A stretch of DNA of 64,000 bases from Candidatus Micrarchaeota archaeon (GCA_016212475.1 JACRGC010000009.1:226556-290555); one strand, 5' to 3'. Positions 5,889 through 64,000 are shown, counted from the stretch's first letter. Notes: generated by a model not told the origin, from the sequence alone. Translations and numbers: made by a program.

Positions 5889-5907
5889 GTAAATTCAGTG
5901 AGGAAAA

Positions 5908-17541: not shown

Positions 17542-18909
17542 CTATTCGACCAGATCGATTTCTCCCTTGACTTTTCCCTTGCTTTTGGATTTTTCGGTTT
17601 TTCCTTCCGGTTTTTCACTTTCCTCCTCTTCTGTTTTTTGCTCCTTTTCTTCCATTTCCCTTCTATGGTGGATTTTCATCCTCTCCATGTTTGCGAATTT
17701 GATGTATGATAGGACTGCCCCTGTAACAACTAAAATTATTGCCGCAATCAATGTCCAGTTCAGCCCCCTAGGCCCTGCAATTTGAAGTTCCGGAGCCAGG
17801 GTTGCAGATGCATCCTTAAGTGCCTGCGCAATGATTTCCCGTGCCCGTTTTGCGGAATTAAGAGATTGCTGGTAATTGCCCGCAGTTTGCTGTGCTTTTG
17901 CAGTTTCCAATTGCTTTTCAGCTTGCGCAGTTTCAAGCGATTTTGATTTTGCATCCGCAATTTCCTTTTCCGCAGCTGCTATTTGGGAAATTGCCTCTTC
18001 CTTGTATGGAATTGGGGTTGGGGAAGGCGCATCCGTTATCACTTTAGGCCCGGTTTTTGGAGTTGGGGTTTGAATGGCTGCCAAGGTCGGGGTTGTTTGC
18101 GGAGGGATATATTGTGTAGCGGGCGGAGAGGGGGCGGTGTTTTGCGTATTCGTGTTTCCGGTTTGCCCCGATGTTGTAGTTGAGGGGGTAGCTGTTGGCG
18201 TAGTCGTTGAAGAAACTGCTGTTACAGTTAGGGAATTTGTGGTTGTGGATGTGCCGGCATCCGCGGATACAACTGTTGTTGTAATTGAATATGTTGCGGC
18301 AGTTGATGAGGAAACCGTAAAAGTTTTGGTTACAAGAGAACTTCCTTCGACGCTAATTCCGGTATAGCTGGTTGGCGAAAAGCTAACTCCCGAAATTGAT
18401 GGGGTAATACTAACTGTTGTTGAAACATCGCCTGCATTGTTGACAACTATGCTTAAAGTGGTCGATCCCGAAGTTGAAATCGATGAAGCCGCCAAAGAGC
18501 CCGAAATGACAATTGATGCAGGTGATAGTACTGATAGTCCCGTTTGCTCCGAATCCAAAACCGTGCTGCTATCCGAAGTTGATGTTCCTGACACGGAAAC
18601 TGTGATTTGGGTTGAATAGCTTCCTGCTACATCGCCGCTGCAGCTCCAGCTTGCACTTCCTGTTCCGGAAGTTGTGTTGTCAAGTGAAATTGATTGCGAA
18701 GATGTTGGCGTGCAGCTAAGGCCGGATGGAAGCGAAATTGTTGCTGTAACATCTTGTATCGAATCGCCATTAACATATGCTGTAATTGTAAATGTGCCTC
18801 CCTGAGTTACCGAAGTTGGGATTGTCACACTGGTAATTGAAAGCTCAGCTGCCTGCGCAAAGTTCAAAAGCGCCAAAAACAATGCAATTGCCAAAATTCC
18901 TCTGTTCAT
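17542..18909 (-). CDS. Secreted Ser/Thr-rich surface protein with C-terminal TM anchor and charged cytoplasmic tail
   Basis: Signal peptide MNRGILAIALFLALLNFAQA; long low-complexity T/S/P stalk (TTTPTATPSTTTSG...); C-terminal LIAAIILVVTGAVLSYI + KEK-rich tail. Confidence 0.6.
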   Translation of the reverse strand: MNRGILAIALFLALLNFAQAAELSITSVTIPTSVTQGGTFTITAYVNGDSIQDVTATISLPSGLSCTPTSSQSISLDNTTSGTGSASWSCSGDVAGSYSTQITVSVSGTSTSDSSTVLDSEQTGLSVLSPASIVISGSLAASSISTSGSTTLSIVVNNAGDVSTTVSITPSISGVSFSPTSYTGISVEGSSLVTKTFTVSSSTAATYSITTTVVSADAGTSTTTNSLTVTAVSSTTTPTATPSTTTSGQTGNTNTQNTAPSPPATQYIPPQTTPTLAAIQTPTPKTGPKVITDAPSPTPIPYKEEAISQIAAAEKEIADAKSKSLETAQAEKQLETAKAQQTAGNYQQSLNSAKRAREIIAQALKDASATLAPELQIAGPRGLNWTLIAAIILVVTGAVLSYIKFANMERMKIHHRREMEEKEQKTEEEESEKPEGKTEKSKSKGKVKGEIDLVE

Positions 18910-18924
18910 TTTGATTACCTAATT

Positions 18925-39581: not shown

Positions 39582-40268
39582 ATGAAAGGTTCAGGCAATT
39601 ATTGGATTTTACTTGCGGCAGTAGTATTGCTATTGGCATCGTATTCGATCACAACTTCCCAAAAGCCCAAGCTTCCGATTGTTTTTGATAACAACGAGGA
39701 TTCCAATGCGATATCCCCAACCCCAATCTCAACTCCAAAAGCAATCACTGGACAAATTGCATTAGTTGAATCATACACAATTAGTGTGGACGCTCCAAGT
39801 GTGTTAATCGAACCTGCGGCAACTGAAACATGTGGCGATGGGTATTGCACTCTATCAGAAAGATGCGATTTATGCGAAATTGATTGCGGCTGCGATCAAG
39901 GTTCATATTGCAGCTCGCAAAACGGCATCTGCTACAAATCCGAAACATGCGGGGATAATACTTGCACGACTTTGGAAAAGCAAACTAGCTCTTGCTGCCA
40001 AGACTGCGGCTGCACAAATGCTGCGGTTTGCAGCCAAGTTTCCCAAAAATGCTCCCAAAAAGTAACCCTTACGGATGAAAAAATAACCTCAATTGTAAAT
40101 GCATACCTGAAAGAAAAAAGCCTTCCATTCAGGCAACTTTCAATTACCGATTCATATTACGGAAGCATTGCAGTAAAGGCAGTTGAGCTTGACTGTACCT
40201 CTCTTTTTGGCGAGTGCAGGCAAATTTTGTATATTGATTCTAAAGGAAACGTGATTGAAGCTGCCTGA
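39582..40268 (+). CDS. Secreted Cys-rich protein (DCGC repeats)
   Basis: Signal/anchor MKGSGNYWILLAAVVLLLASYS; repeated CxxC/DCGC modules (CDLCEIDCGCDQGSYC, CCQDCGCTNAAVC). Confidence 0.5.
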   Translation: MKGSGNYWILLAAVVLLLASYSITTSQKPKLPIVFDNNEDSNAISPTPISTPKAITGQIALVESYTISVDAPSVLIEPAATETCGDGYCTLSERCDLCEIDCGCDQGSYCSSQNGICYKSETCGDNTCTTLEKQTSSCCQDCGCTNAAVCSQVSQKCSQKVTLTDEKITSIVNAYLKEKSLPFRQLSITDSYYGSIAVKAVELDCTSLFGECRQILYIDSKGNVIEAA

Positions 40269-40348: not shown

Positions 40349-41164
40349 ATGGATCAAAAACCCAAATCAAAGAAACTGGATCTTAGGAACCTCGACCTAT
40401 TTGGCATGGGTGAAAAGAAATTCAACCAAAAAATTTCATCAGATCTCTCATCCGGAGAGCGGGTAGCTACTGGAATTCCGGGCCTTGATGAACTAATTGA
40501 AGGCGGATTTGTCCGCGGAAATGTGATTTTAGTTGCCGGAGATGCAGGCACAGGAAAAAGCACTTTAGCAATGCAATACCTCTACAACGGCGTAACTTTG
40601 TATGGCGAACCCGGAGTGTATTTGACATTTGAGGAAAAAAAGGAAAACCTCTTTAAGAACATGCTAAGATATGGGTGGGATTTGGAAAAACTTGAAGAGC
40701 AAAAGAAGCTGTTGATTTTACAATATCCTCCGCATGATATTGATAGGTTTTTGCTTGAGGGGGAAATAATTGAAGATACAATCAAGGACATGAAAGCAAA
40801 ACGCCTAGTGATCGATTCAATTACCTCCTTTGCCTTGATTTTTGATTCCGAATACAAAAGAAGGATTGGCATCATAAAAGCCCTTGAACTATTCAAGAAA
40901 TGGGGCTGCACAACGCTTCTAACTTCAGAAGCAAATAGCCTCCCAAGCGGGGAAATCCGGGAAAGGTTTAAGCTCGGCTATTTGGCCGATGGATTAGTCA
41001 GGCTCTACAACATCCGGCAAGGGGATGAGCGCCAAAAGGCAATTGAAATTGTCAAAATGAGGGGCATTGCGCACAGCAACATGATCGTCCCATTTGATTT
41101 CAAGCAAAACGGAATCGAGCTCTACCCCAACCAGCCTGTTTTTGGGGGGCTTGAAAGAAAATAA
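40349..41164 (+). CDS. KaiC-like RecA-superfamily ATPase (ArlH/FlaH-like)
   Basis: TGIPGLDELIEGGFVRGNVILVAGDAGTGKSTLAMQY (Walker A), RLVIDS (Walker B); single KaiC domain ~270 aa. Confidence 0.8.
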   Translation: MDQKPKSKKLDLRNLDLFGMGEKKFNQKISSDLSSGERVATGIPGLDELIEGGFVRGNVILVAGDAGTGKSTLAMQYLYNGVTLYGEPGVYLTFEEKKENLFKNMLRYGWDLEKLEEQKKLLILQYPPHDIDRFLLEGEIIEDTIKDMKAKRLVIDSITSFALIFDSEYKRRIGIIKALELFKKWGCTTLLTSEANSLPSGEIRERFKLGYLADGLVRLYNIRQGDERQKAIEIVKMRGIAHSNMIVPFDFKQNGIELYPNQPVFGGLERK

Positions 41165-41239
41165 TCGACTAATCATCAACCTAGCAAAAACCCAAAAACT
41201 TCAATATGTTTATATAAGCTGATTTCGTGCTTTAATCGT

Positions 41240-42346
41240 ATGCACGCAAGAGCTAAAACAAAAGCGCAATCATCCCTTGAACTCCTGATAATCTTATCCG
41301 TCGGGCTGGTTTTGCTTGGAATAATTTTTTCAATTTCACAGCAGCGCATCAATTCCTCCCAGCAATCAATTGCCCTCTCATCGGCAAAATCTGCAACTTC
41401 GGCAATATCGGCAGCAGCCGATTCGGTTTATTTTGAAGGCGTTGGGGCAAAACGGCAAGTTAGCATTACAATTCCCGAAGGGACAGTTGCAACTTCAGTA
41501 ACTGCAAACTCGATTTCCATGCGTCTTCAAATTGAAGGCGGGCCAACTGATGCATCCGCAAACACCAATGCTATCCTTTGCAGCAATTCGCAATTACCAA
41601 CAATCCCGGGAACTTATCGCATTTCAGTTGAAAGCTTGGATGGTTGCGTCTTGATTGGAACTGCTTCAAAATTGGAAGTTAGCACAACCCTAATCCAACT
41701 AATTGGCTATGCAAATTCTACTTATAACAAAACCATCAATTATACGAATGCCGGCACATCTCCAATTACTGTAACTCTTCAGCTTTTATTTGCTTCATCT
41801 GATGCGTCGATTTTATTGGCTTCACAATCGGTTTTCACATTAAATCCCAGCGAAAAAATGGAAACAAAGCTAGGAATCGACCTTTTCCCATCTGCAATTG
41901 GAAGCTATTCTGGGCAGCTCAAGGCATTTGGGAGCAATGGCGATAATTTGACAACTTTGATTTCAATTTCAGCTTCGGGCGCAACCTGCTCGCAGCAAAC
42001 CTGCACATCAACTGATGGAGCAGCAGTGATTGAAATCGAAACCTACTCCTCCGCCTCCTACTCTCAAAAGAAGGAAATCTTCGAGCCTCCCGAAACAATT
42101 GAATTAATGGGCGGCAATTGGGATCCAAATTCTGCAATTTCAATTGATGTTAGGGATCCTTCGGATGCATATTCAATTCCAAATTACCCAAAATCCCTAA
42201 CAACAAATTCAACCGGCGGTTTTACCGATTCATTTTCAGCTGCCTCCCTTGGCGCTTCCGATGGCTACATTGCAAAGGCTAGCGGAACCGAACTTGGAAT
42301 CCCAAAGACAAAAACATCAACTTTTGATGCACTTGCCTGCACGTGA
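41240..42346 (+). CDS. Prepilin-like protein with class III signal peptide (368 aa)
   Basis: MHARAKTKAQSSLELLIILSVGLVLLGIIF: K-A-Q cleavage motif + hydrophobic helix with E at +5. Confidence 0.55.
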   Translation: MHARAKTKAQSSLELLIILSVGLVLLGIIFSISQQRINSSQQSIALSSAKSATSAISAAADSVYFEGVGAKRQVSITIPEGTVATSVTANSISMRLQIEGGPTDASANTNAILCSNSQLPTIPGTYRISVESLDGCVLIGTASKLEVSTTLIQLIGYANSTYNKTINYTNAGTSPITVTLQLLFASSDASILLASQSVFTLNPSEKMETKLGIDLFPSAIGSYSGQLKAFGSNGDNLTTLISISASGATCSQQTCTSTDGAAVIEIETYSSASYSQKKEIFEPPETIELMGGNWDPNSAISIDVRDPSDAYSIPNYPKSLTTNSTGGFTDSFSAASLGASDGYIAKASGTELGIPKTKTSTFDALACT

Positions 42347-42353
42347 AACCAAT

Positions 42354-44063
42354 ATGGAAAATAATTTGAAAAGAATAGGAAAATTGGAAGCAATTGCAGC
42401 CTTGCTTTTGATGCTATTTATTTTCCAAAACCTATCGGCTGCATCCGTTTCATACTCGCAAGATGGCCTCCCCTACCTTGCAAACGGCACTTCAACCTCG
42501 TCAATAAATTTCATCAATGCGCAGGATGATGATTCCTTCAACATTTCCCAATCACTTGCAAATACAATCAGTTCATCGACAAACATGGTGTTGAATGGCA
42601 ATTTCACAGCAGGATCACCAACCTCTTGGGCATACGCAGAAACCGATGCTAGCAATCGTGCCAGTTCAACCTTCCTTGCAATAGGGGGGGATATAGAGCC
42701 CGGAAGGTGGCGTTTTCGCCTCTCGGATAATTCAAATGCGCAGGGCTATAGCGTCCAGGGGAATTTGACAAATACCGGCGTTTTTTGGGATGGAACAACC
42801 CCGGTCGATGCAACGCTTAATTTTTCATTCTACAAAAACTACAATACCGCCCCAACTGCCGACGTGGTTTCTGTTTACCTTCTAAGGCCAGATGGCTCCC
42901 AAATCCTGCTTTGGACAAATGCCACAATTTTCAGCAATGCGGTTTTTTCCAGTGTTGGCTTACCAATTTCGCCTGCCTATTTCAACATTGCCGGAACCTA
43001 CCAGATCCGCATGCACAACCGCATAATTACCCCCGCATCCGGCACAATGGCGGTCGATCATTTCTGGGATCAAATTTCCCTCGTATTGCAAAAATCTTCT
43101 TCTTACTATTCCTTTGATGTTTGGCACAACTCCACATCAATCACAACCCCATCCAACCCTGCCCAAATCATAGGAATCAATGCGACTTTAAGGTTCAAGG
43201 CGGATTTTGCAATCACGCCCAAACTGGAAATTTACAATTTCAATTCGGATTTGTGGGTTTCATCCGATTGCTCCCCAACAACAGCAATTGTTGCAAACAC
43301 TTGGTATTTATGGAATTGCGATATTTTATCGTCCGCCTCCCAATACGTCAGCAATGATGCGAACAAGAAATTGAGGGTGCGTTTCTATTCGCCAGATGCC
43401 CAAACTACAATGGCAAACATTTCTTCCGATTTGTTGAATTTCACGGTTTTCTACAATTTACCGCAGGCATATGTTGCAGTTTCAAAGCCATCCTACCAAG
43501 CTTGCGGAAATGCGTATTACCAGTTGAAATTATTTGACAAGAATTTAGTTCCATTCACTTCCGCAGCAACAGTAAATATAACAATTTCCAATTCAACTTC
43601 CTCCCAATTTTCAACCCTTCAATCAGTTGCCGGAGGGGTTTATTCCGGCTCGTATTCCCTAAGCCCCAAGGCAAATTCAGGCAATTGGCAAATCAGCGCA
43701 TTATCGGGTGCATATTCCAATGAGCCATTTTACGTTGCCACAGGGGGGTTGGATGTTTGGAAGATCAATTTGTTATTTTCAGATACAAAAGGAAGATACT
43801 CGCAAAGTTCAAGCATTCCCGTTTCATTCAACATTCTAAATCTCAATGGAATTGAAATTTCTGGTTTGCAGCCAAATGGAAATCTGCTTTTGTTTAGGGA
43901 CAATTCCTTATTTTCAGCCCCAATAGCAGATTATGCAAACGGAACATATTCCTTCCTTCTTGATTTCTCATCCTTAAGCGCCGGTTCATCCCATAAATTA
44001 ACCGTTATGGCAAATTCGAGCGCAATCAATGTTTCCGCTAGCCAGGGATTTTTTGTAATTTAG
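42354..44063 (+). CDS. Large secreted protein (570 aa), possible pilus-associated adhesin
   Basis: N-terminal hydrophobic segment KRIGKLEAIAALLLMLFIF; starts 8 nt after previous stop; ORF track start 42249 overlaps upstream gene. Confidence 0.5.
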   Translation: MENNLKRIGKLEAIAALLLMLFIFQNLSAASVSYSQDGLPYLANGTSTSSINFINAQDDDSFNISQSLANTISSSTNMVLNGNFTAGSPTSWAYAETDASNRASSTFLAIGGDIEPGRWRFRLSDNSNAQGYSVQGNLTNTGVFWDGTTPVDATLNFSFYKNYNTAPTADVVSVYLLRPDGSQILLWTNATIFSNAVFSSVGLPISPAYFNIAGTYQIRMHNRIITPASGTMAVDHFWDQISLVLQKSSSYYSFDVWHNSTSITTPSNPAQIIGINATLRFKADFAITPKLEIYNFNSDLWVSSDCSPTTAIVANTWYLWNCDILSSASQYVSNDANKKLRVRFYSPDAQTTMANISSDLLNFTVFYNLPQAYVAVSKPSYQACGNAYYQLKLFDKNLVPFTSAATVNITISNSTSSQFSTLQSVAGGVYSGSYSLSPKANSGNWQISALSGAYSNEPFYVATGGLDVWKINLLFSDTKGRYSQSSSIPVSFNILNLNGIEISGLQPNGNLLLFRDNSLFSAPIADYANGTYSFLLDFSSLSAGSSHKLTVMANSSAINVSASQGFFVI

Positions 44064-44072
44064 GTTTTTACT

Positions 44073-44474
44073 ATGATAAAAAGGGCCCAATTCAGCTTCG
44101 ATTTGCTTTTGGTTTTAGGAATCATGCTGATAATTTTTCTATTGCTTTTCAATTATTACACTGAAAAAACGCAATCAACAAATTCCCAGCAAAAGCAGTT
44201 CCTAGCAAGGCAAGCCGCATCAGAAATTTCCGAAATTGTCAATTCCGTCTATTTGGGCGGAAATGGCGCCAGTTCCTCGTATTTTCTTCCAACAGATCTA
44301 CAAGGCAGTGATTATAGCCTGACAATTTCCAATCGAAGGGTTGAGATTTTGCTTTATGGAAGTTCAGTTAGCAGTGCCATCCTAACTTCCGGCGTTGCAT
44401 CGCCAGATTTGAATGCAAAAAAAGGCTCGAGCATTGTTTTTGCGAATGTCAACGGAGCCATTACAGTTAATTAG
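44073..44474 (+). CDS. Prepilin-like protein (133 aa)
   Basis: MIKRAQFSFDLLLVLGIMLIIF: R-A-Q class III signal motif. Confidence 0.55.
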   Translation: MIKRAQFSFDLLLVLGIMLIIFLLLFNYYTEKTQSTNSQQKQFLARQAASEISEIVNSVYLGGNGASSSYFLPTDLQGSDYSLTISNRRVEILLYGSSVSSAILTSGVASPDLNAKKGSSIVFANVNGAITVN

Positions 44475-44482
44475 TGATTCAT

Positions 44483-45010
44483 ATGAGAGCCCAGCTTTTT
44501 TCATTTGATTTGATCCTTAGCGTTTCCATACTTCTTTTGCTGTTTGGCATTACGGTTTCAATTTTTAGCAGGACCGATGCAGTAATGAAAGAAAACGCAA
44601 TAGAAAAGGAGATTTCCCAAAATGGCAATTACGCCCTCTCTTCCCTAATTGAAACAAGCGGCTATCCAACCAATTGGGAGCAACTTGCATTTACCGATTC
44701 AAATGCAAAAGCCTTGGGCCTTGCAACAAGCGCTGGACATCTAAACCCCCAAAAAGTTGGCAAATTCTTCGAGCTTGCAAATTCAAATGAGAATAATTAC
44801 CTTTTGACAAAACGCATCCTTGGAATTGATTTTCCTTCCAGCAATTATACCCTTGAAATTTACGATCTGGAAGGGGAAAAAGTTTACTCCACAACCTTTG
44901 CGTCAAATAATGCTATTGCAAATTCGTATTCAATTTACGCCTTCCAGCGGCTTGCGCTCCTAAATAATCAACCGGTTAGATTATCGCTTAGGATCTGGGT
45001 GAAAAAATGA
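44483..45010 (+). CDS. Prepilin-like protein (~175 aa), paralogue of preceding gene
   Basis: MRAQLFSFDLILSVSILLLLFG, same RAQ.FSFDL motif; GTG at 44474 would overlap previous stop. Confidence 0.55.
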   Translation: MRAQLFSFDLILSVSILLLLFGITVSIFSRTDAVMKENAIEKEISQNGNYALSSLIETSGYPTNWEQLAFTDSNAKALGLATSAGHLNPQKVGKFFELANSNENNYLLTKRILGIDFPSSNYTLEIYDLEGEKVYSTTFASNNAIANSYSIYAFQRLALLNNQPVRLSLRIWVKK

Positions 45011-45411
45011 GGGGCATACTTTTCTCAACGGACGCCGTTTTAGCGCTTCTGGTTTCCATGCTCTTCATAGGCTATATTTTCCATTCCCTCTCATTAATAG
45101 AATCAGCCAAGCCAAGAATGGAAAGCCTCCAAAAAATATCCGGGGATTTTTTGCAAATACTTGAGGAGGATGGTTCGCTAAAAATGTCTATGGAATCAAA
45201 TTCGGATATTCCAATTGTTAATGATGGCCGCATTTTGCCTTCCAATTTATGCTATGAGCTAATTCTTACATCGAAGGATTCGCAATCTCCCCTGATATCC
45301 TCTTCAAATTGCGCCTGCAAGGATTTTGTCCTTTCAAGAAGGAGCTTCATCGCATCGAATGGAACTGCCCAAGCAGAACATTTTGCCGAACTTAAAACAT
45401 GCTACAAGTGA
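45007..45411 (+). CDS. Prepilin-like protein (134 aa)
   Basis: MRGILFSTDAVLALLVSMLFIGYIF: R-G cleavage motif, D at +5; ATGA overlap with previous gene. Confidence 0.5.
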   Translation: MRGILFSTDAVLALLVSMLFIGYIFHSLSLIESAKPRMESLQKISGDFLQILEEDGSLKMSMESNSDIPIVNDGRILPSNLCYELILTSKDSQSPLISSSNCACKDFVLSRRSFIASNGTAQAEHFAELKTCYK

Positions 45412-45416
45412 AAATT

Positions 45417-46217
45417 ATGAAAAAAGGGATTTTCTTCACATTGCTCTTTTCACTCCTGCTGCTTCTTTGCCTTTCGGCAATTTTGTTCTATATCGATCAT
45501 CAGAAGGGGGAGAATCCAAGCGCACTTAAGGTTTCAAAATACTCCACAATTGCAAATGGTATTTCATCCGATCTGTTGGAACTTGGCAAAATTTCCAACA
45601 TGGCAATTGTTAGAAATTCAACCCATGCAATCATTTCCTTAACTTCCGACCTTACCCCTAATGAGCCCCCAAACTATTCAATATACGGAGCATTTGTCGA
45701 AGGGGAATATGCTAAAAAGCAAAACCTAGCCGGCAAATTGGTTTTAACCACTTCACAAAACCCTTTCATCTATTTTGATGGCATTTCCGCCAATTTTTCA
45801 TTTTCCAACGATTCTTCCAAATTGGAAGGGAGCGTAGCAATCGATGGCTATGAACTGCATTTCTACAATTTATCGGAAGTTCTGCAATCCTGCGGATGGA
45901 CTTCAAGCGCATCCGGCAGCCTAAGCGTAAAAATCACCTTTGATTCCCTAAATTGCCCATCCCAAATTGTAAGCATAAATCCCCAAATTCAAAACAAATT
46001 CTTCCTAAACACCTCCTCTGGAAAATACCTAAACATTACATTTGGAAATGTTGCGCTTTTTGACAATTCATTCGATTTGAAAATTGGCAATTTAAATGCC
46101 TCCTACGATTTGAACATCTCCGCTCAAACATCAAATCCGGTAAGCGGGAAATTATCCGCAAAACTGGAATTCGTTGGCGATTACACCTTGCAATCACTTC
46201 TTGTTTTGCAAGGATAA
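45417..46217 (+). CDS. Prepilin-like/secreted protein (~266 aa)
   Basis: MKKGIFFTLLFSLLLLLCLSAILFYI (K-G motif + hydrophobic helix); ORF track start 45399 overlaps the previous gene. Confidence 0.45.
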   Translation: MKKGIFFTLLFSLLLLLCLSAILFYIDHQKGENPSALKVSKYSTIANGISSDLLELGKISNMAIVRNSTHAIISLTSDLTPNEPPNYSIYGAFVEGEYAKKQNLAGKLVLTTSQNPFIYFDGISANFSFSNDSSKLEGSVAIDGYELHFYNLSEVLQSCGWTSSASGSLSVKITFDSLNCPSQIVSINPQIQNKFFLNTSSGKYLNITFGNVALFDNSFDLKIGNLNASYDLNISAQTSNPVSGKLSAKLEFVGDYTLQSLLVLQG

Positions 46218-46280
46218 GCCTGTTTGATGGAATTTGGACAAATAGTCCAAGCTCAATAGGAGGCACCCTTCAATTAGTTC

Positions 46281-46640
46281 CTACTTCTTCCCAAAGAATT
46301 TCCCATCAACTTTGGCAAACCCGTAGATTTTTGAGAATTTCCCAATTTCGTATGTAATTTTGATGAAGCAAAGCGAAATTACAGCTTCATACAATGACCT
46401 ATAATTCTCAACAAAATTAGGGCCGATCGCATCAAGCGGATTGATGTCCCTAAGCAGCACAAGCCCGTTGAACACCAATTGGAATAAGAAAAACAAGACA
46501 GCCGTGTAATAGATCCATTCAACTATTCTGCGAAATTCACCCTTCTCAAACCTTGCCCTTGCCTGGCTAATCATCACAACTGCTCCAAATGCAGCTATGA
46601 TATTTAGGGAATTGAACAATATTATGCTATCAACTGCCAT
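46281..46640 (-). CDS. Hypothetical membrane protein (119 aa)
   Basis: Three predicted TM helices. Confidence 0.4.
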   Translation of the reverse strand: MAVDSIILFNSLNIIAAFGAVVMISQARARFEKGEFRRIVEWIYYTAVLFFLFQLVFNGLVLLRDINPLDAIGPNFVENYRSLYEAVISLCFIKITYEIGKFSKIYGFAKVDGKFFGKK

Positions 46641-46757
46641 ACAAATCGCCCATGCAAACAGCCATTCAAAGCACCCTTATAAATTGCCTTCCAAAGCACT
46701 TTTATCCTTCCTCTTTTATTCAAAGCAATCTTATCAACCGCCAAACCCATTTCCTAT

Positions 46758-47333
46758 TCATTTTGAAATCCTAATTACCTTATCGCAAAACTGCGAAAGA
46801 TCCGAAATCAATTTCTGGTCCGATTCCTTTTCCATCGAAACCATTATCATTCCAACGTTCCAAATCCGCATCTTGGAAACCAAAAAATGCGTGAACTGCG
46901 CAACCGTCCCGGCTGAATTGTAAATCAGCATTGTAGAGAGGGAATCCATGAATATAAAACGATCTCCCGCAGTATCGCCCATTCTCTCAACCAGCTGTGT
47001 TAGGGCAATGCTAAGCTCGGTTAAATTCCTAGGCGATGGCAAAAAAATGCAATTTTCAGTCCTTTCGCCGCGCTTTCCGGTTGTTTGCGTAATCAAATCA
47101 AGGAAATACAGCCTATCCACATCGATTTTTTCCTTTGCAAGGGATGCCAATAGCGTTTCGTAAGGCCGGTTGAACGTTACGTAAATTCCTTCTGAATTTC
47201 CCTGCTTCATCAGCAATTTCAGCGCATTTTGGTTGGCATTTAGGTATTTTTCAGAATCCGAAACGAGCATCACAATGTAGTGCCTTGGAAGCTCCCGCAG
47301 TTCCTTTTCCAGTTTAGATAGCAAATCCGCCAT
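46758..47333 (-). CDS. RecA-superfamily (KaiC/RadA-like) protein lacking a canonical Walker A motif
   Basis: 191 aa; beta-alpha pattern ending RFIFMDSLSTMLIYNS (Walker B-like hhhhD) and GMIMVSMEKES, but no GxxxxGK[ST]. Confidence 0.4.
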   Translation of the reverse strand: MADLLSKLEKELRELPRHYIVMLVSDSEKYLNANQNALKLLMKQGNSEGIYVTFNRPYETLLASLAKEKIDVDRLYFLDLITQTTGKRGERTENCIFLPSPRNLTELSIALTQLVERMGDTAGDRFIFMDSLSTMLIYNSAGTVAQFTHFLVSKMRIWNVGMIMVSMEKESDQKLISDLSQFCDKVIRISK

Positions 47334-47428
47334 ATTCCAACATTACAGCTAGCGCCTTAAATACTTTATCCGAACTAGCCCAATTGGAAAAACATTGGCG
47401 AATTTTGGTGTTCAATCTATTGAAAAAG

Positions 47429-47728
47429 TTATTTTTTACTCAAATCAAGAAATTCTTTACCTAGAATAGGAACTAGGGCAAAATTAAGCATAAAGATTCC
47501 GACGACAATTAGTAAGACCCCCGTTAATTTTATGTTCCATCCAGGCATCTGAAGTTTTGAAATAATTGGATCTTTACCTAATAGAACTAATATCCCCCAA
47601 ATACAAAATCCGAATCCAAATATTGCATATAGCATTGCAGGTAATTTATTTGAATAGGATGTACTAGAAAATAAAAAAAAGAAAAGTAAACTTAATACGA
47701 ACGTAATTGTAGCAAACTTATTGTCCAT
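47429..47728 (-). CDS. Small membrane protein (3 TM)
   Basis: 99 aa hydrophobic ORF. Confidence 0.35.
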   Translation of the reverse strand: MDNKFATITFVLSLLFFFLFSSTSYSNKLPAMLYAIFGFGFCIWGILVLLGKDPIISKLQMPGWNIKLTGVLLIVVGIFMLNFALVPILGKEFLDLSKK

Positions 47729-47848
47729 GTATCTGATGATCTTTTACGATCTATTTATTTCTTTCGGTTTTTCTGTTTGTTCCTTCTTCCTAGTTCCAGA
47801 TCCCCAAATCAACATATTTTTATAGCTCCCCGCAATACTTGCTATCAT

Positions 47849-49687
47849 ATGGACGCCATTCCCCCCCGCCCCAAATCATCAAAGCTTCATGGATCTGAAT
47901 TTGTCTCAAAAGAGCATGCACCCCTTTTTCGGACTAAAATAACCCAGCTTTGCGAAAACTTGGAAGGCAAGAAAAACCGCGAGGAAAATTTTGAATCGCT
48001 TGCAAAAGAACTATCCATTTCAACAAATGAAATTGAACGGCTTGGGAAAATCCTCCAAGAGCAGGGAATTTTGGAGCTAAACTATCCAGTCAACATACTC
48101 TCCCGCCCCTCTGTTAGGCTGATTCAAAAGCTAGAGCAGCCGCATTCCGAAAAAATCGGCGGAGAAAAACTCCTCCTCTCATATCCACTATCTGCCCATA
48201 ATGTCCCAGCTTCAGTTGAAATTTGGCAAATGCATGATTCGAGCCGCCCAATTTACGCCCTTCATCACCCTCTTGTTTGCATCTACACAGAAAAATTCCT
48301 AAATTTCCTTCGGGATACGCTTGCAAAATCCCTTCCGGTTGAAACCGACGAAATTGTTGATAAGGGAAAATTTGCAAAACTAATGGATAGGTTTTACGCA
48401 GCCTCGCTTGAACTAATTGATAAGGAGCTTCCTTCAATTCCAGAGCACGAAAAGAAAGCGCTTGCCGGGATCATGCTCCATAGGATGTATGGCCTTGGAG
48501 ACATCGAACTTTTGATGGCTGATGATAATTTGGAGGAAATTTCCATAAACGGCTCGAATTCCCCCCTTGGGGTTTACCATCGAACATACGGCTGGCTCAA
48601 AACAAATTTGCATATGCGAAGCGAGGAGGAAGTTTACAATTACGCGGCCCAAATCGGAAGGAAATCGGGCAGGGAAATTTCCATGCTCTCCCCAATTCTT
48701 GATGCCGCCCTTGTTTCCGGTGATCGTGTCTCTGCAACCCTCTTTCCAATCTCATCAAATGGCAACACAATTACTATTAGAAGATTTGCAAGGAACCCTT
48801 GGACAATTTCTGGAATAGTTTCTGAAAAATCGCATACCATGTCAACAGAAATGGCGTCTTTCCTCTGGCTAGCAACGCAATACGAAATGAATATTTTAGT
48901 TGCAGGTGGAACTGCCTCTGGAAAAACCTCAACTCTTAACACCCTAGCGGCGCTAATCCCTCCCTCGCAGCGCATTGTTTCAATTGAAGATACTCGTGAA
49001 ATTACACTTCCATCCTATCTCCACTGGAACTGGGTTCCGCTTCTAACAAGAGGCGAAAATCCCGAAGGAAAGGGAAGGATTTCCATGCTTGATTTGATGG
49101 TTGAAAGTCTTAGGATGCGCCCCGACAGAGTAATTGTTGGAGAAGTTCGCCGCAAGCGCGAAGCTGAAGTGATGTTTGAAGCAATGCACACGGGGCACGC
49201 CGTCTATTCGACAATTCATGCCGATTCCGCTTCCCAAGTTGTCCGAAGATTGCTTGAGCCCCCAATTGAAATTCCGCGGCTTGAACTTGAATCCCTCCAG
49301 CTAATCGTTGTGCAGTACCGCGACCGAAGAAAAGGCCTTCGAAGAACCTATGAAATTTCAGAAATCACGCAAGGATCATCCGAATCTTCCGGCTTAAATC
49401 TCAACACGCTTTTCAAATGGCGTCCGAGGACCGATGCATTTGAAAAAGTCAACGAAAGCTCGCGTGTTTTTGCCGAGCTTAATTTGCACTCCGGAATGAC
49501 AATTTCCGAAATCCAAGAAGATCTTTTGCAAAAGCAAAAAATACTCGAATGGATGATTTCAAGGAATGTTTTTTCATCCGATGATGTTGGATCCATAATG
49601 GGCGCTTATTACAAGAATCCGCAAGAAATTTTCGAAGCTGCCAAAAAAAATTCAAACCCCGCAGATGTTGTTGCATTCAAGGTGTGA
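47849..49687 (+). CDS. Type IV pilus/archaellum assembly ATPase (PilB/GspE/ArlI-FlaI family)
   Basis: Walker A VAGGTASGKTSTLNTLA, Asp box IVSIEDTREI, Walker B RPDRVIVGEVR, His box; N-terminal extension; ORF track start 47777, ATG at 47849 preferred. Confidence 0.85.
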   Translation: MDAIPPRPKSSKLHGSEFVSKEHAPLFRTKITQLCENLEGKKNREENFESLAKELSISTNEIERLGKILQEQGILELNYPVNILSRPSVRLIQKLEQPHSEKIGGEKLLLSYPLSAHNVPASVEIWQMHDSSRPIYALHHPLVCIYTEKFLNFLRDTLAKSLPVETDEIVDKGKFAKLMDRFYAASLELIDKELPSIPEHEKKALAGIMLHRMYGLGDIELLMADDNLEEISINGSNSPLGVYHRTYGWLKTNLHMRSEEEVYNYAAQIGRKSGREISMLSPILDAALVSGDRVSATLFPISSNGNTITIRRFARNPWTISGIVSEKSHTMSTEMASFLWLATQYEMNILVAGGTASGKTSTLNTLAALIPPSQRIVSIEDTREITLPSYLHWNWVPLLTRGENPEGKGRISMLDLMVESLRMRPDRVIVGEVRRKREAEVMFEAMHTGHAVYSTIHADSASQVVRRLLEPPIEIPRLELESLQLIVVQYRDRRKGLRRTYEISEITQGSSESSGLNLNTLFKWRPRTDAFEKVNESSRVFAELNLHSGMTISEIQEDLLQKQKILEWMISRNVFSSDDVGSIMGAYYKNPQEIFEAAKKNSNPADVVAFKV

Positions 49688-49689
49688 AA

Positions 49690-50616
49690 ATGAACCTCTT
49701 CCTCTTCCGCTATGGAGGCATACTCAATGGAAAACTTAGGCGCTTTGTTGGCCTTGGATCAAAAATTGGGAACATGATCCCGGGTTTAAAATTTGACCTC
49801 CAAGAAGCCGGCTATGTCGCTTCAGTTGGCGAATACACCGCAGCAGCCCTTGCAAATTCCTTCTTTTACTCCCTAACTTTGTTCCTAATCCTCTCCTTTG
49901 CCTTGCTAATCCGCGCCACTTCTTCCAACGCCTTTCCAGTTGATGTTTCAAACGAATCAATTGTTTCCCTATTTCTTACTTTAAAACTGGCCTTTGCTTC
50001 CGCATTTGCCTTCTTTTTCATGTTCTTCTTTTTCTTTCTTTTCTATCCAAAAGTTGAAGCTAGGAAAATTGCCGAAAATGTCGACCGCGATTTAATTTAC
50101 GCACTTAAAGATATGCAGCTTCAAATTTCCTCCGGAGTTTCACTCTATGACGCCCTTGCAAATGTTTCCAAATCCGATTACGGCAGGGTTTCACGCGAAT
50201 TTGAAATTGCAGTCAAGGACATTTCAGCCGGAGGCGCTGAGGATAAGGCTCTTGAAAAAATTGCAGAGCGGACCGAATCCGAATTCATGCGAAAGACAAT
50301 TTGGCAAATGCTAACTTCCCTTCGGGCAGGGACTCCAGTTGATGGCGCTCTCAAAAACACAATTGCTTCCCTAAACAACCACCAAAGGCAGCAAATAAAG
50401 GAATTTTCCTCGGAATTGAATGTTTTAAGTTTGCTTTACATGCTCTTTGCAGTGGCAATTCCGGGCCTTGGCTCAACTCTTCTGATTGTGCTCTCATCAT
50501 TTGGCGGAATAAAAGTCAACGAGCTGTTCTATGTTGCAATAATTTCCTCCTGCTTTTTTGTAGAAGCGATAATAATTGGCTTCATCAGAAGCAGGCGGCC
50601 GGCGGTGCATGCATAA
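49690..50616 (+). CDS. T2SSF-domain membrane protein (N-terminal half of TadC/ArlJ-like platform protein)
   Basis: One GspF/T2SSF domain (DLIYALKDMQLQISSGVSLYDALANVS...ALKNTIASL) flanked by TM helices; ends with TAA directly followed by in-frame ATG of next gene. Confidence 0.7.
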   Translation: MNLFLFRYGGILNGKLRRFVGLGSKIGNMIPGLKFDLQEAGYVASVGEYTAAALANSFFYSLTLFLILSFALLIRATSSNAFPVDVSNESIVSLFLTLKLAFASAFAFFFMFFFFFLFYPKVEARKIAENVDRDLIYALKDMQLQISSGVSLYDALANVSKSDYGRVSREFEIAVKDISAGGAEDKALEKIAERTESEFMRKTIWQMLTSLRAGTPVDGALKNTIASLNNHQRQQIKEFSSELNVLSLLYMLFAVAIPGLGSTLLIVLSSFGGIKVNELFYVAIISSCFFVEAIIIGFIRSRRPAVHA

Positions 50617-51876
50617 ATGGCTAAAAATCAAAATAAAAAATCCAGAAGGAAAAAAGCGAATGCAGCTGCTGCTTCCCAAAACGTAAATCAACAAATCATC
50701 CAAACAATTGCAACAAAAAAAACTGAAGCTCAAAAAACCAATCCTGCAATTGGCCCAAAGGATGGCTCCAAAATCGCATCCCCAATTACTCTTAATACTT
50801 CTGCTTTTTCAACTGTAAAATCGCCAATCCGCCAGCCAAGCATCAAGGCATATGTCCCTGCGCAAGTTCAAGGCAAAGGATTCATGCCCGGCATCTATTT
50901 CTTCCTCTCAAAATTTGCAACGCGCTCGCAAAAACAATCCCTTCGGGAAAAAATGCTTTTGGCAGGGATCGATTCTGAAGCAGAGCTTTGGCTTGGCGAG
51001 GTTTTGCTTCTCTCAAAGCTTTGCGCATTTGCTACATTCATGCTATTCTGGGTGATTTTCAAGGAAGCCCTGATTTTCAAGCTTTTACTATTTGCATTCA
51101 TTGCATTTGGCTTGGTGCTATTTACTGCTGTAATTCATTTAAACATCCGGATTGAAGATAGGAAAAACCGCCTTGAAGCCATACTTCCGGATGCAATGCA
51201 GGTTATTTCTGCAAACATCAGGTCCGGAATGTCACCGGTTGTTGCTCTTCGAGCGTCTGCTCGCCCGGAATTTGGCCCATTGCAAGAAGACATTAAATAC
51301 GCAACAACAAAATCCCTAGGCACCGGCTCTTTTTCAGATGCGCTAAATGAAATGGGTAAAAAAACCTCATCCGAACTATTTCAGCGAATAGTTGCACTAT
51401 TTTCTGCCTCCCTAAGGTCCGGAGGCAAATTAGCATCCCTCCTTGAAAATACCGCAAATGATATCCGAGACACCCAAGAACTAAAACGCGAACTTGTTTC
51501 AAACACGAGGCTTTACGCTATTTTCATCATCTTCACGGTTGTAATTGGAACCCCCCTCCTTTTGGCAGTTTCAATCCAATTCGGGAGCATGGTAAACAAT
51601 TTGCAGGCAAAAACCTCTTCCGGAAGCATTGCTTCTGATTTCACAACAATTCCATTGATCAGCTCTCCTTTGAAGCAGGATTTCCTTGAGCACTCCGCCT
51701 TTGTGATTTTATTGATAACTACTTTCCTAGCTTCCGCCCTTCTAGGTGTCATGAATAACGGCTCCTACGCATCCGGACTTAAGTATTTTCCGGCTCTTTC
51801 AATTGCCGCAGTTTTGTTTTTCATCTTTATGAAGGATTTTGCCCTAAAAGCGATCCTTCCAATTGCTGGAATTTGA
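50617..51876 (+). CDS. T2SSF-domain membrane protein (C-terminal half of TadC/ArlJ-like platform protein)
   Basis: Second T2SSF domain (LPDAMQVISANIRSGMSPVVALRAS...LLENTANDIRDT) with TM helices; Lys/Ala/Gln-rich low-complexity N-terminus. Confidence 0.7.
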   Translation: MAKNQNKKSRRKKANAAAASQNVNQQIIQTIATKKTEAQKTNPAIGPKDGSKIASPITLNTSAFSTVKSPIRQPSIKAYVPAQVQGKGFMPGIYFFLSKFATRSQKQSLREKMLLAGIDSEAELWLGEVLLLSKLCAFATFMLFWVIFKEALIFKLLLFAFIAFGLVLFTAVIHLNIRIEDRKNRLEAILPDAMQVISANIRSGMSPVVALRASARPEFGPLQEDIKYATTKSLGTGSFSDALNEMGKKTSSELFQRIVALFSASLRSGGKLASLLENTANDIRDTQELKRELVSNTRLYAIFIIFTVVIGTPLLLAVSIQFGSMVNNLQAKTSSGSIASDFTTIPLISSPLKQDFLEHSAFVILLITTFLASALLGVMNNGSYASGLKYFPALSIAAVLFFIFMKDFALKAILPIAGI

Positions 51877-51956
51877 TTATTGCCGCGTTTTCAATCAAGC
51901 TCAAAGGCAGTTTTTATCGCAATCCATGCCTTTTAAGGAAAGCGCAGTCATTTCCG

Positions 51957-52661
51957 TTAGCTTGTTGGGCAAGCTCCTTGCGTATAATATGCGACATTCT
52001 CATCCTTGCAGGCATTGCATGAATTGCCATACGTCTGCGCGCAGGGGTATTTTATGCACTGAATATTTGCAGGATCGTTCCAGCCGCATACCGGCGCATA
52101 TTCTTCTGTGCAAAATTCCGCTTTCCTTTGTTCTGGACTACAGTCAAATGCCTTAAGCTTCCCAATTGCGGAAGGAACCGGTTCAGGCTCCTCAAATGTG
52201 AACTCGCATCCGCATGAATTCTCATCGGAATAAGGAATATAGTTTTTCACGCACATATACCTAATCCTTGAGCACTCATCGGCACTTTTCCCGATTATTT
52301 TTTTTGGTTCAATTGCCCTGCACCCGCATCCAGTGCCATCAGAAAATGGCGCTGAGCCTTCAATGCATTGGAATAGCATGGTTTTGCATTCTTCAGGCGA
52401 TGTGCTTACATATCTGGTGTATGGGTCGGTTGTTCCAATTCCTCCATCCGGCTCAACGGGTATTGGGCGTTCATTGCTGCATGCATAGAATTCGCAGCTG
52501 TTATTTGGATCTCGCCCAACCGATGTGCCGTTTGGGCAAATTTTTGCATCCTCTGTACAAACAATTTGCTTTCCCTTGTCATTGACATTGTTTGAAATGC
52601 ATCCGGCAGCTATGGCCAATATCAGCACCAAAAATACAGAAAAGATTTTCATAGATCTCAC
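51957..52661 (-). CDS. Cys-rich lipoprotein with C-terminal Kazal-like motif
   Basis: Lipobox-like LAIAAGC after signal peptide; repeated C..C...P(F/Y)SD..(C)GC modules; C-terminal FCTEEYAPVCGWND...TYGNSCNACKDENVAYYTQGAC resembles Kazal protease-inhibitor signature (PVCG.D..TY.N.C..C). Confidence 0.5.
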   Translation of the reverse strand: MRSMKIFSVFLVLILAIAAGCISNNVNDKGKQIVCTEDAKICPNGTSVGRDPNNSCEFYACSNERPIPVEPDGGIGTTDPYTRYVSTSPEECKTMLFQCIEGSAPFSDGTGCGCRAIEPKKIIGKSADECSRIRYMCVKNYIPYSDENSCGCEFTFEEPEPVPSAIGKLKAFDCSPEQRKAEFCTEEYAPVCGWNDPANIQCIKYPCAQTYGNSCNACKDENVAYYTQGACPTS

Positions 52662-52845
52662 CTTTTTATCTCATTTATTTGAGGTATTTCGCATTTAACC
52701 CAAATTCACATTAAGTATAATGAGTTGGCTAATAAATTATTTCTTTTTTTATGAAGCCACTGCTTAACTATCCTGATTCGCCGTTTTCGATACCTTTAAA
52801 TATCGCTAAAAACTTAAAGCAATCAATATTCGAGAAGGTGGTTTG

Positions 52846-53298
52846 ATGAAATTAAGAGCGCAAGCAGCAGTAGAATATCTTATGATTTTGGCGGTAGTAA
52901 TCATTATCGCACTCGTAGTAGTTGGAGTCCTTGGGGGCTTCCCATCATTAACGGCTGGGATTTCCGAAAAGGAATCGGCGGCATACTGGACAACAGCTGA
53001 TGTAGGGATTGTTAGAACTTACGTATCGGGAGCTGCTGTACAAATGGTTCTTAGGAATAACAAGAACTTTGCAATAGAAGTTACTGGGGTGGATGTTGGT
53101 ACTGGTACCATCGCATCGATTTCAAAAACCTTGCAGCCAGGAGAAACAACAACCTTGACGCCCGTGTTTACTTTGACCACAGCATGCGTGGCAGGTGCTT
53201 CGTTTTCCTATAATACGGTTGTAACTTACAAGGATTCGACGTATAGTACTGCTTACACCTTTACCGGTGCCAAGCCACTTGTTGGAGTTTGCCAATAA
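52846..53298 (+). CDS. Archaeal type IV pilin (DUF361-type N-terminus), major pilin candidate
   Basis: MKLRAQAAVEYLMILAVVIIIALVVVGVL: class III signal, R-A|Q cleavage, E at +5; SD GGTG 5 nt upstream of ATG 52846 (ORF track start is TTG 52843); Thr/Ser/Gly-rich beta C-domain with C-terminal Cys pair. Confidence 0.7.
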   Translation: MKLRAQAAVEYLMILAVVIIIALVVVGVLGGFPSLTAGISEKESAAYWTTADVGIVRTYVSGAAVQMVLRNNKNFAIEVTGVDVGTGTIASISKTLQPGETTTLTPVFTLTTACVAGASFSYNTVVTYKDSTYSTAYTFTGAKPLVGVCQ

Positions 53299-63057: not shown

Positions 63058-63299
63058 CTCACCAAACAAAACAAGCAATGCAAATAATAAAAACACATAG
63101 CTGACGCTAGGGTTTAAAAAAACAAAATTTTGAAAAAAGCTTGCGCTAGGTTTCCAAAAAATAAAATCAGGGAAAAATGCGGAAAAGATGTGCCTAGTAT
63201 GCTTTAAACGCCATATAGGAAAGATTTCACTGAGAATATCCCTCAATTGTTTTAGTCATATCATGTATTCAATGAAATAACAAGAGAGGGAATTTTGTG

Positions 63300-64000
63300 T
63301 GTGTTTTGGCCTTTAGTAATGGTTAGCTCACGGATCGCTTGCGCTTTCCGTTTACACTCCCATCCTATCGAACTCATCTGCTATGAGCGACCTGTGCCGT
63401 TTCGTTTTAGGCATGGCTTCGTCCTTAGATGCTTTCAGGACTTATCCATTAGCGCGTAGCTACGCAGCTTGCCTTTAAAGACAGCTGCCATACCAGCGGC
63501 GCCGGTTCCCCGTTCCTCTCGTACTCAGAGAACCTTACCCTCAAACGGCAATGCACTTCTAGGAGATGCCACCGAACTGTCTCGCGACGTTCTGAACCCA
63601 ACTAACGTAGGTCTTTAATGGATGAACAACCCAACCCTTGGCGGCTCCTGCACCGCCAGGATGACCTGAGCCGATAGCGATGTACCAAACCGCGTGGTCG
63701 ATTTCTTCCCTTACGGAAAGGAAATCCCCAGCGTTCGTTTAACAATTAAGTTAGGTTACAGCTTACGCTGACATCTCACTTGACGAGGAACATTCCAACT
63801 AGCAAAATGCCAGTGTATTCTGAAACGAAAACTAAAATTGCGCGAACGCATGAAAAAGATCCGATCCTGCATTTTTCCTAAATAGGAAAATTGAAGATAT
63901 GAACTCTAGCACGCGACGAGCCTGTATGGAGTCTCATCGTTGACATTAAAAAATAAAATTATTTAATGTGTGAAATAGCCCGAATTTTGTTTGGGTGTTC
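63300..64000 (-). rRNA. 23S rRNA gene, 3' portion (partial; continues past window end), with internal insertion(s)
   Basis: Minus-strand matches to conserved 23S blocks: sarcin-ricin loop AGTACGAGAGGAAC (63516-63540 region), GGGTTCAGAACGTCGCGAGACAGTTCGG, GCTGAAAGCATCTAAG, 3'-terminal GAGCTAACC.TTACTAA. Confidence 0.85.
63691..63885 (-). other. ~195-nt insertion (putative archaeal rRNA intron) in the 23S helix-89 loop
   Basis: Flanking sequences ACAGGCTCGTCGCGTGCTAGAGTTCATATC | ... | GACCACGCGGTTTGGTACATCG are collinear with E. coli ACAGGCUGAUACCGCCCAAGAGUUCAUAUC-GACGGCGGUGUUUGGCACCUCG (CGCGUG/CACGCG stem conserved); intervening 195 nt is AT-rich and non-rRNA-like. Confidence 0.4.

Follow-up and report, generated by a model that had tools for sequence, protein, structure and literature searches.

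A region of some 13 kb (positions 40,349 to 53,298) within a stretch of 64,000 nucleotides from a Candidatus Micrarchaeota archaeon (GCA_016212475.1 JACRGC010000009.1:226556-290555; the whole stretch is termed the window below) very probably constitutes a biogenesis locus for a type IV pilus, that is, a type IV filament, in this member of the DPANN archaea, and the filament probably serves to attach the cell to surfaces or to a host. The assignment is built upon domain content, signal-peptide motifs, operon layout and conservation: a secretion-type assembly ATPase is followed by two paralogous platform genes, a predicted major pilin is encoded nearby in its own transcription unit, and five pilin-like proteins are encoded together with a KaiC-family ATPase and a large secreted protein, in an order found again in further Micrarchaeota as well as in genomes of Iainarchaeum/Diapherotrites. 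A first-pass annotation, made from the sequence alone, had recognized a surface-filament assembly locus of a small-genome archaeon, and that proposal was borne out; its further suggestion, that an archaellum-like motor core (ArlH/ArlI/ArlJ) had been combined with pilus subunits in a non-standard and uncharacterized arrangement, was not.

Gene content and layout

The locus is composed of two co-directional gene blocks separated by a small divergent one, together with a standalone pilin gene. Block 1 (40349-46217, plus strand) contains the KaiC gene and the genes for a 368-residue pilin-like protein, a secreted protein of approximately 570 residues, and pilin-like proteins of 133, 178, 134 and 272 residues; the divergent block (46281-47728, minus strand) encodes a 119-residue membrane protein, a 191-residue KaiC/DUF7504-like protein and a 99-residue membrane protein; and block 2 (47849-51876, plus strand) holds the genes for a T2SSE ATPase and for a pair of single-T2SSF-domain proteins. 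A minus-strand gene for a 234-residue Cys-rich lipoprotein separates block 2 from the pilin gene. Operon signals are provided by genes that are close-set or overlapping, with intergenic distances of -4 to +9 bp across the pilin part of block 1, 76 bp separating the KaiC gene from the pilin gene that follows it, a 4-bp overlap between the start of the first platform gene and the stop of the ATPase gene, and a second platform gene whose ATG immediately follows the TAA stop of the first. All of the genes listed in the first-pass annotation are present, at or near the positions given there. The features are as follows (a slash marks the predicted cleavage site; homologue counts and N-terminal patterns refer to related loci, of which 80 were fetched with a profile of the ATPase and several more through exact protein look-up).

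40349-41164, plus strand: single-domain KaiC-family ATPase, 271 residues, heading the minor-pilin operon (PF06745, 199.2 bits; cut-off 26.6)
41240-42346, plus strand: pilin-like protein, 368 residues, KA/QSSLE, predicted minor or tip pilin (homologues in 35 loci, [KR][GA]/Q..xE)
42354-44063, plus strand: secreted MG2 (macroglobulin-like) protein, 569-570 residues, candidate adhesin (MG2, 34.6 bits; cut-off 32.8; Sec-type signal; 16 sequons)
44073-44474, plus strand: pilin-like protein, 133 residues, RA/QFSFD, predicted minor pilin (32 loci, /Q.S.[DE])
44483-45010, plus strand: pilin-like protein, 175-178 residues, RA/QLFSFD, acidic residue at +6, predicted minor pilin (38 loci, /Q.FS.D)
45007-45411, plus strand: pilin-like protein, 134 residues, RG/ILFSTD, acidic residue at +6, predicted minor pilin (20 loci, /[IF][FV]F[ST].D)
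45417-46217, plus strand: pilin-like protein, 266-272 residues, KG/IFFTLLF, no acidic residue, predicted minor pilin (8 loci, /[IF][FV]F)
46281-46640, minus strand: small membrane protein, 119 residues, two predicted transmembrane segments (equivalently placed homologues in L002, L005 and L006)
46758-47333, minus strand: KaiC/RecA-like protein lacking a Walker A motif, 191 residues (DUF7504, 42.3 bits; PF06745, 29.9 bits)
47849-49687, plus strand: T2SSE assembly ATPase of the TadA/CpaF/ArlI branch, 612 residues from its ATG (PF00437, 119.8 bits; cut-off 24.9)
49684-50616, plus strand: platform protein 1, TadB/TadC-like, 310 residues, one T2SSF domain (PF00482, 60.5 bits; homologue in 76 loci)
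50617-51876, plus strand: platform protein 2, paralogue of platform protein 1, 419 residues, one T2SSF domain (PF00482, 62 bits; homologue in 73 loci)
52846-53298, plus strand: predicted major pilin, 150-151 residues, RA/QAAVEYL, two conserved cysteines, own transcription unit

The nearest homologues of the ATPase are found in Micrarchaeota, followed by other DPANN lineages; DPANN homologues number in the thousands. Two of the proteins, the KaiC-like ATPase and the 150-residue pilin, are 100% identical to proteins of a Candidatus Micrarchaeota metagenome-assembled genome at NCBI (locus tag HY989, on a contig of 320 kb), where they are labelled ‘AAA family ATPase’ and ‘hypothetical protein’, respectively.

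The assembly ATPase and its platform

Comparison of the ATPase with solved structures placed it closest to Archaeoglobus GspE (afGspE, 2oap; 1.4e-79, 271 bits), followed by FlaI (4ii7; 2e-56, 195 bits) and CpaF (1.7e-42), with PilB far behind at approximately 1e-8, and its score on the FlaI model NF058587 (286.5 bits) falls under the cut-off of 550. The first-pass annotation had described this protein as a PilB/ArlI-family ATPase; it is a T2SSE ATPase, and the test for an ArlI orthologue gave a negative result. Ahead of the region that aligns with afGspE, the protein possesses a conserved N-terminal extension of approximately 125 residues (window 47849-48220) with an invariant Tyr-Pro, for which Pfam returned only insignificant matches to helix-turn-helix-like families (searched at E-values up to 1).

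The two platform proteins, each with four to five predicted transmembrane segments, are 26% identical to one another, are found as two adjacent genes in 73-76 of the 80 fetched loci, and score only 15-33 bits on ArlJ models with cut-offs of 400-570. The earlier statement that two T2SSF domains lie in two reading frames is correct, and the reading of those frames as a single split protein is not: because they are diverged paralogues that are separate genes in nearly all related loci, they form an old TadB/TadC-type pair and are neither a disrupted gene nor a broken ArlJ. Clade 1 and many clade 2 archaeal pili typically have two tadC genes, as do the system 1 clusters of DPANN archaea (PMC4858521; bioRxiv 10.64898/2026.04.22.720090). 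In one Micrarchaeota metagenome-assembled genome (L003, 146-14935, a contig shared with L008), two modules of an ATPase plus two platform genes flank a KaiC/minor-pilin operon, a layout that suggests two motors sharing one pilin set.

Predicted major and minor pilins

A screen of all 135 window reading frames of at least 80 residues, using a FlaFind-like regular expression ([KR][GA]) and a hydrophobicity filter, returned eight in which a hydrophobic stretch comes after a class III-type N-terminus. Six of those eight (368, 133, 178, 134, 272 and 151 residues) fall inside the 13-kb locus, a clustering for which a binomial estimate gives approximately 1e-3. For each of the pilin-like families, homologues occur in between 8 and 38 related loci, and each family keeps its own characteristic N-terminus, a conservation that is stronger evidence than the clustering within the window. 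Glutamine at +1 is found in the 368-, 133-, 178- and 151-residue proteins and in their families. An acidic residue at +5, which the first-pass annotation had attributed to the whole set, is confined to the 368-, 133- and 151-residue proteins; it is displaced to +6 in the 178- and 134-residue proteins, and is absent from the 272-residue protein and across its homologues. Many homologues of the 368-residue protein carry long C-terminal extensions.

The gene for the 150-residue protein, the predicted major pilin, is preceded by a TTTAAATA box of its own, has GGTGG as its ribosome-binding site and ends in a T-rich tail; the protein belongs to a family in which Q+1, E+5, and the tyrosine and leucine that follow are invariant and two cysteines are conserved. 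An AlphaFold2 model computed from 49 sequences (predicted local distance difference test score of 86) begins with an N-terminal helix (residues 8-29) and continues as a predicted β-sandwich. The protein contains no N-glycosylation sequons.

Conservation of gene order

Examination of related genomes, which the first-pass annotation had recommended, revealed that the gene order is conserved. In two related loci (L002 and L005; 74-77% ATPase identity), the full order is retained: KaiC, the 368-residue pilin-like protein, the large secreted protein, the 133-, 178-, 134- and 272-residue proteins, a divergent pair on the opposite strand (small membrane protein and DUF7504), the ATPase, both platform proteins and the pilin. 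The same order, minus the divergent pair, is found in L003 (57% ATPase identity), and in L086 the KaiC gene is followed by all six operon genes up to the end of the fetched stretch. A core order, in which the first pilin gene comes straight after KaiC, extends to Iainarchaeum/Diapherotrites and other DPANN genomes: L014 (the complete GW2011_AR10 genome), L015 (Iainarchaeum), L022, L023, L030, L038 and L045. Conservation of the 119-residue membrane protein is confined to close relatives.

The KaiC-like ATPase and the DUF7504 protein

The protein at the head of block 1 displays a Walker A motif (GDAGTGKS), the KaiC-like motif TFEE, and a Walker B motif (VIDS), in agreement with its first description as a single-domain KaiC-like ATPase. 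Its equation with ArlH (FlaH) is contradicted by several comparisons. Among NCBIfam models, it scores 170 bits on KaiC and 169 bits on KaiC_arch_3, the latter below that curated subfamily's cut-off of 249, versus 51.6 bits on ArlH (NF052589; cut-off 215), and among solved structures it matches KaiC domains, PH0186 (5e-42) and PH0284 (1.6e-33) far better than FlaH (4yds, 3e-6). Sixteen pilus-linked KaiC homologues from related loci behave in the same manner, with a best ArlH E-value of 1.7e-16 versus approximately 1e-50 for KaiC models. Because the protein groups with non-archaellum KaiC paralogues, the first of the findings that the first-pass annotation had itself named as incompatible with its proposal was obtained.

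The association of this gene with pilin genes was quantified using a non-redundant set of 36 loci, each with two or more minor-pilin homologues. In 13 of these, a KaiC homologue lies no more than 1.5 kb from the 5' end of the minor-pilin operon, mostly on the same strand and often at a distance of 3-50 bp or overlapping; it overlaps or abuts the first pilin gene in L003, L030, L038 and L045. In the reverse test, starting from KaiC homologues, those of 62% and 54% identity were found to head pilin operons (L086 and L087), and paralogues of 49% and 46% identity were found paired with Roadblock/LC7 proteins, with no pilus genes nearby (L088 and L089). Because of these contexts, the pilus-linked KaiC genes look like a sub-branch of a wider DPANN family of KaiC signalling proteins.

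Several of these loci display additional features of their own. The pairing of a KaiC paralogue with a Roadblock/LC7 protein (L088, 8438-9720; L089, 7888-9699, the latter with an additional DUF7504 gene) looks like a separate DPANN KaiC signalling module. L087 (8315-16326) contains, in this order, a DUF7504 gene, KaiC, two homologues of the 368-residue pilin and a 355-residue protein with a weak Peptidase_A24 match, followed by HxsD and a radical SAM gene, and is the sole related locus seen in which a candidate prepilin peptidase adjoins KaiC and pilin genes. In L086 (8137-10581), a gene for a MinD/ParA-family ATPase lies directly 5' of the KaiC homologue, and the KaiC gene is separated from the first pilin gene by an inserted RHH-PIN toxin-antitoxin pair. 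Pilus-linked KaiC homologues from Iainarchaeum-like genomes (L014, 4487-5680; L015, 3072-4136; L023, 1922-3199) carry a Lys/Glu-rich, low-complexity N-terminal extension of approximately 100-200 residues, which the window protein lacks.

The Walker-A-less relative of KaiC encoded in the divergent block had been correctly described as RecA-like and divergently transcribed, and incorrectly placed after the platform genes; it lies upstream of the ATPase gene. In eight related loci, a DUF7504 homologue is transcribed divergently from the ATPase gene and lies under 1.2 kb 5' of it, and DUF7504 genes adjoin KaiC homologues in L014, L015, L087 and L089. The KaiC-like ATPase is probably a regulator or accessory ATPase, and the DUF7504 protein is probably its partner.

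Secreted proteins and flanking genes

The 570-residue protein was confirmed as secreted, with a signal peptide of the Sec type; its homologues in L002, L003 and L005 likewise have Sec-like and not class III N-termini, and a secreted MG2 protein occupies the equivalent position in those three loci and in L086. Its 16 sequons (N-x-S/T) compare with 9 in the 272-residue and 6 in the 368-residue pilin-like protein. Genes for an AglB/STT3 oligosaccharyltransferase and a GT4 glycosyltransferase are located elsewhere in the window (3108-6873, plus strand). Also within the window, a 1719-residue protein (17542-24084, minus strand) with 67 sequons and a weak MG2 match neighbours a Ser/Thr-rich (31%) protein of 455 residues, whose N-terminus fits the class III-like pattern and looks Sec-type; the two, which stand apart from the pilus locus, may together make up a giant surface-protein or adhesin pair.

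The locus is flanked by two proteins that are rich in cysteine (18 and 21 residues, respectively) and resemble secreted proteins or lipoproteins (39582-40268, plus strand, and 51957-52661, minus strand); neither matches a known family or has a homologue in the related loci. The second is the 234-residue lipoprotein, which the first-pass annotation had included in the locus and which is indeed present there. The same annotation had suggested that two upstream proteins, of 864 residues and of 228 residues with DCGC repeats, may belong to the system, a suggestion to which conservation lends no support; these two and the lipoprotein were set aside as system components, being without homologues in any related locus. 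At E-values up to 1, Pfam gave no significant match to those three proteins, to the ATPase N-terminal extension, or to the two small membrane proteins. Scans of the window for tRNA genes and Rfam families had as their sole match an archaeal large-subunit rRNA gene (63294-64000, minus strand), which is cut by the window end so that its 3' portion alone is present.

Proposed pathway and alternative explanations

Assembly begins with the synthesis of the 150-residue protein and the five pilin-like proteins as precursors with class III signal peptides, as shown by their motifs and the conservation of those motifs, and would continue with the removal of a short leader, mostly before glutamine, by a prepilin peptidase presumably encoded outside the window. 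From what is established for these families, a hexameric ATPase of the TadA/ArlI branch would dock on a heteromeric platform of the two single-T2SSF paralogues and polymerize the major pilin via its N-terminal helix. The five pilin-like proteins, whose genes are co-transcribed with that of the sequon-rich MG2 protein, would, on the model of bacterial minor pilins, make up a complex that primes or caps the fibre and may display an adhesin, for which the MG2 protein is the candidate. The KaiC ATPase and its DUF7504 relative, to judge from their conserved linkage, may serve as cytoplasmic regulators of assembly or of expression. Two candidate models for this last step are available from published KaiC-family cases: ArlH is an autokinase that binds ArlI (PMC8978795), and CirA reduces the transcription of arl genes in Haloferax (PMC10983859). 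A more specific and rather doubtful extension of the former is that KaiC and its Walker-A-less relative form a dedicated cytoplasmic ring or switch that binds the pilus ATPase and gates assembly, in the manner of ArlH and on behalf of a non-rotating pilus. If that were true, control of the motor ATPase by KaiC-type proteins would be common to type IV filaments of archaea in general, and perhaps ancestral to them, rather than an invention of the archaellum, and the switch could time host attachment in DPANN archaea.

Several observations weigh against the assignment of a pilus locus, or against parts of it. The pilus is predicted from genes, and a filament is unobserved for this organism. None of the pilin families reaches threshold with any Pfam or NCBIfam model: the N-terminus of the 150-residue protein, called a textbook DUF361 sequence in the first-pass annotation, owes what remains of that description to its invariant Q+1 and E+5, as it scores 14.7 bits on PF04021 (Class_IIIsignal/DUF361) versus a cut-off of 23.7, and the other pilin-like proteins lack any PF04021 match at Pfam E-values up to 10. 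Such sub-threshold matches to pilin-like proteins (Class_IIIsignal at 14.7 bits, DUF7266, DUF7287) were rejected as unusable evidence. A prepilin peptidase is absent from the 64-kb window, where a screen of reading frames with multiple transmembrane segments found no match to Peptidase_A24 (FlaK/PibD/EppA); those frames encode AglB/STT3, the GT4 protein, a VTT-domain protein, and two proteins without a family match. A 433-residue protein with a GxGD motif and a 223-residue membrane protein were considered as A24 peptidases and rejected, as they have no Pfam match and do not read like A24 enzymes. Finally, the linkage to KaiC is frequent and not universal, and the 46-49%-identity paralogues reside in Roadblock/LC7 contexts that are free of pilus genes, so that the role of KaiC could be one of general signalling and not specific to the pilus.

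That last point forms the core of a somewhat unlikely alternative, in which the pilus is real and the KaiC-like ATPase and DUF7504 are general signalling neighbours without a dedicated pilus role. In addition to the limited frequency of adjacency and the paralogues found with Roadblock/LC7 and DUF7504 away from pilus genes, it draws upon proposals that KaiC-like ATPases are broad signalling hubs, and upon the pleiotropy of Haloferax CirA (PMC10983859). Against it, the linkage holds from Micrarchaeota to Iainarchaeum/Diapherotrites while identity among the pilins drops to 30-40%, overlap of the KaiC gene with the first pilin gene is frequent, and both of the sampled homologues with at least 54% identity head pilin operons. 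A different and improbable alternative is that the locus encodes a short pseudopilus-type device, comparable to bacterial type II secretion (T2SS) or competence (Com) systems, that secretes proteins or imports DNA or nutrients from a host. A major pilin accompanied by four or five co-operonic minor pilin-like proteins does resemble those systems, and the import of DNA or nutrients by DPANN pili has been the subject of speculation (PMC5498576; PMC9563170); however, components for DNA binding or translocation and secretion substrates are not evident in the locus, the nearest characterized archaeal relatives are adhesive pili (PMC4858521; bioRxiv 10.64898/2026.04.22.720090), and a role in adhesion fits both the MG2 protein and the long adhesin-like extensions carried by homologues of the 368-residue protein.

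The hybrid proposed in the first-pass annotation, an ArlH/ArlI/ArlJ-like core driving an adhesive-pilus-type filament that could be a rotating or archaellum-like organelle, is largely refuted and by now very improbable indeed. While a KaiC-family ATPase is linked to ATPase, platform and pilin genes much as ArlH is in arl clusters, and while the FlaI model is the best NCBIfam match of the assembly ATPase, every ArlH, ArlI and ArlJ model falls below its cut-off. The KaiC-like protein retains the TFEE motif and, together with all 16 pilus-linked homologues, favours KaiC models over ArlH, as do its structural matches; the ATPase is closer to afGspE than to FlaI; the platform resides in two genes; searches of Pfam and NCBIfam found no archaellin, ArlF/G, ArlCDE or ArlX domain in any reading frame of the locus; and archaellum genes are generally lacking in DPANN genomes (PMC5498576). 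Components of Ups and Aap pili were likewise not found (UpsA, 20.8 bits for the 150-residue pilin versus a cut-off of 130; UpsF, 21.6 bits versus 400). A type IV pilus remains the preferred explanation for the locus as a whole.

Significance and relationship to known systems

DPANN archaea need physical contact with a host, and pili are leading candidates for the means by which it is made. What is obtained here is a clean, conserved list of Micrarchaeota pilus parts (one major and five minor pilin families, a glycosylation-prone secreted protein, and a KaiC/DUF7504 pair), useful for annotation, in which all of these parts are publicly labelled only ‘hypothetical’ or as generic ATPases, and for the design of experiments with those few Micrarchaeota that are in culture. 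How archaeal surface filaments are currently pictured is left unchanged, and a false lead is removed, because the locus is not an archaellum hybrid.

The arrangement is already of a known kind, because KaiC genes in pilus clusters and two-gene platforms have both been reported, contrary to the first-pass suggestion of an uncharacterized system. Archaeal type IV pili with KaiC-family ATPases, two tadC genes, adhesins and minor-pilin sets have been described (PMC4858521), as have two-platform-gene systems in DPANN archaea (bioRxiv 10.64898/2026.04.22.720090). Golyshina et al. attribute two type IV pilus systems to the Micrarchaeote Mia14, with key components common to many Micrarchaea (PMC5498576); a 2022 study of Nanohaloarchaeota depicts pilus clusters with two kaiC copies (PMC9563170); and Makarova et al. 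(2019) describe DPANN pilus islands full of unrecognized pilins (PMC6393860). The locus resembles these reported clusters (Mia14/Ca. Mancarchaeum; the TadA-TadB-TadC plus kaiC clusters of Nanohaloarchaeota/Undinarchaeota; the 2019 ‘dark matter’ pilin island) in its lineage group, its core genes, its unannotated pilins with signal peptides and its kaiC gene. The available portions of those accounts do not describe the N-terminal signatures of five minor pilins, KaiC at the operon head, or the DUF7504 partner, and these family-specific N-termini, operon-head position and partner are the detail that the present analysis adds.

Among characterized systems, the locus is most readily compared with clades 1 and 2 of archaeal type IV pili (Makarova, Koonin and Albers 2016; type IV filament systems 1 and 2), exemplified by the Epd-like pili of Methanococcus and the PilB3/PilB4-type loci of Haloferax. 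Like them, it combines a VirB11/TadA-branch ATPase with two tadC-like genes, a dedicated major pilin, a FlaFind-type minor-pilin set, a large secreted adhesin-like or surface-layer-like protein, Q+1 in most pilins, and KaiC-family genes in or beside the operon (PMC4858521; bioRxiv 10.64898/2026.04.22.720090). Unlike them, its pilin families fall below Pfam and NCBIfam thresholds, and it contains no peptidase gene.

With respect to Epd-type Methanococcus pili (EppA-dependent, DUF361; type IV filament system 1) in particular, Q+1 and two platform genes are shared, and membership of PF04021 and a short headless major pilin are not. The two shared features are regarded as marks of the Epd family on the basis of PMC4858521 and bioRxiv 10.64898/2026.04.22.720090, and reportedly also of Szabo et al. 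(2007). The major pilin of the locus, as modelled, differs from the headless EpdE-type pilin of the 2026 preprint in possessing a globular β-sandwich. The archaellum (ArlA/B, ArlF, G, H, I, J and CDE/X) belongs to the same superfamily, and is distinguished from the locus by its archaellin, stator and switch, by an ArlH to which the KaiC-like protein is not orthologous, by an ATPase for whose model (FlaI) the present ATPase is below cut-off, and by the two platform genes found here. Bacterial Tad/Flp systems (TadA/CpaF, TadB, TadC) are approached in the closer match of the ATPase to CpaF than to PilB and in a platform of two single-T2SSF paralogues; unlike those systems, the locus lacks a secretin or other outer-membrane component, its predicted major pilin has a globular domain that Flp does not, and its host is an archaeon. 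A derivation of Tad from archaeal Epd-like pili has been proposed (PMC6668835; bioRxiv 10.64898/2026.04.22.720090).

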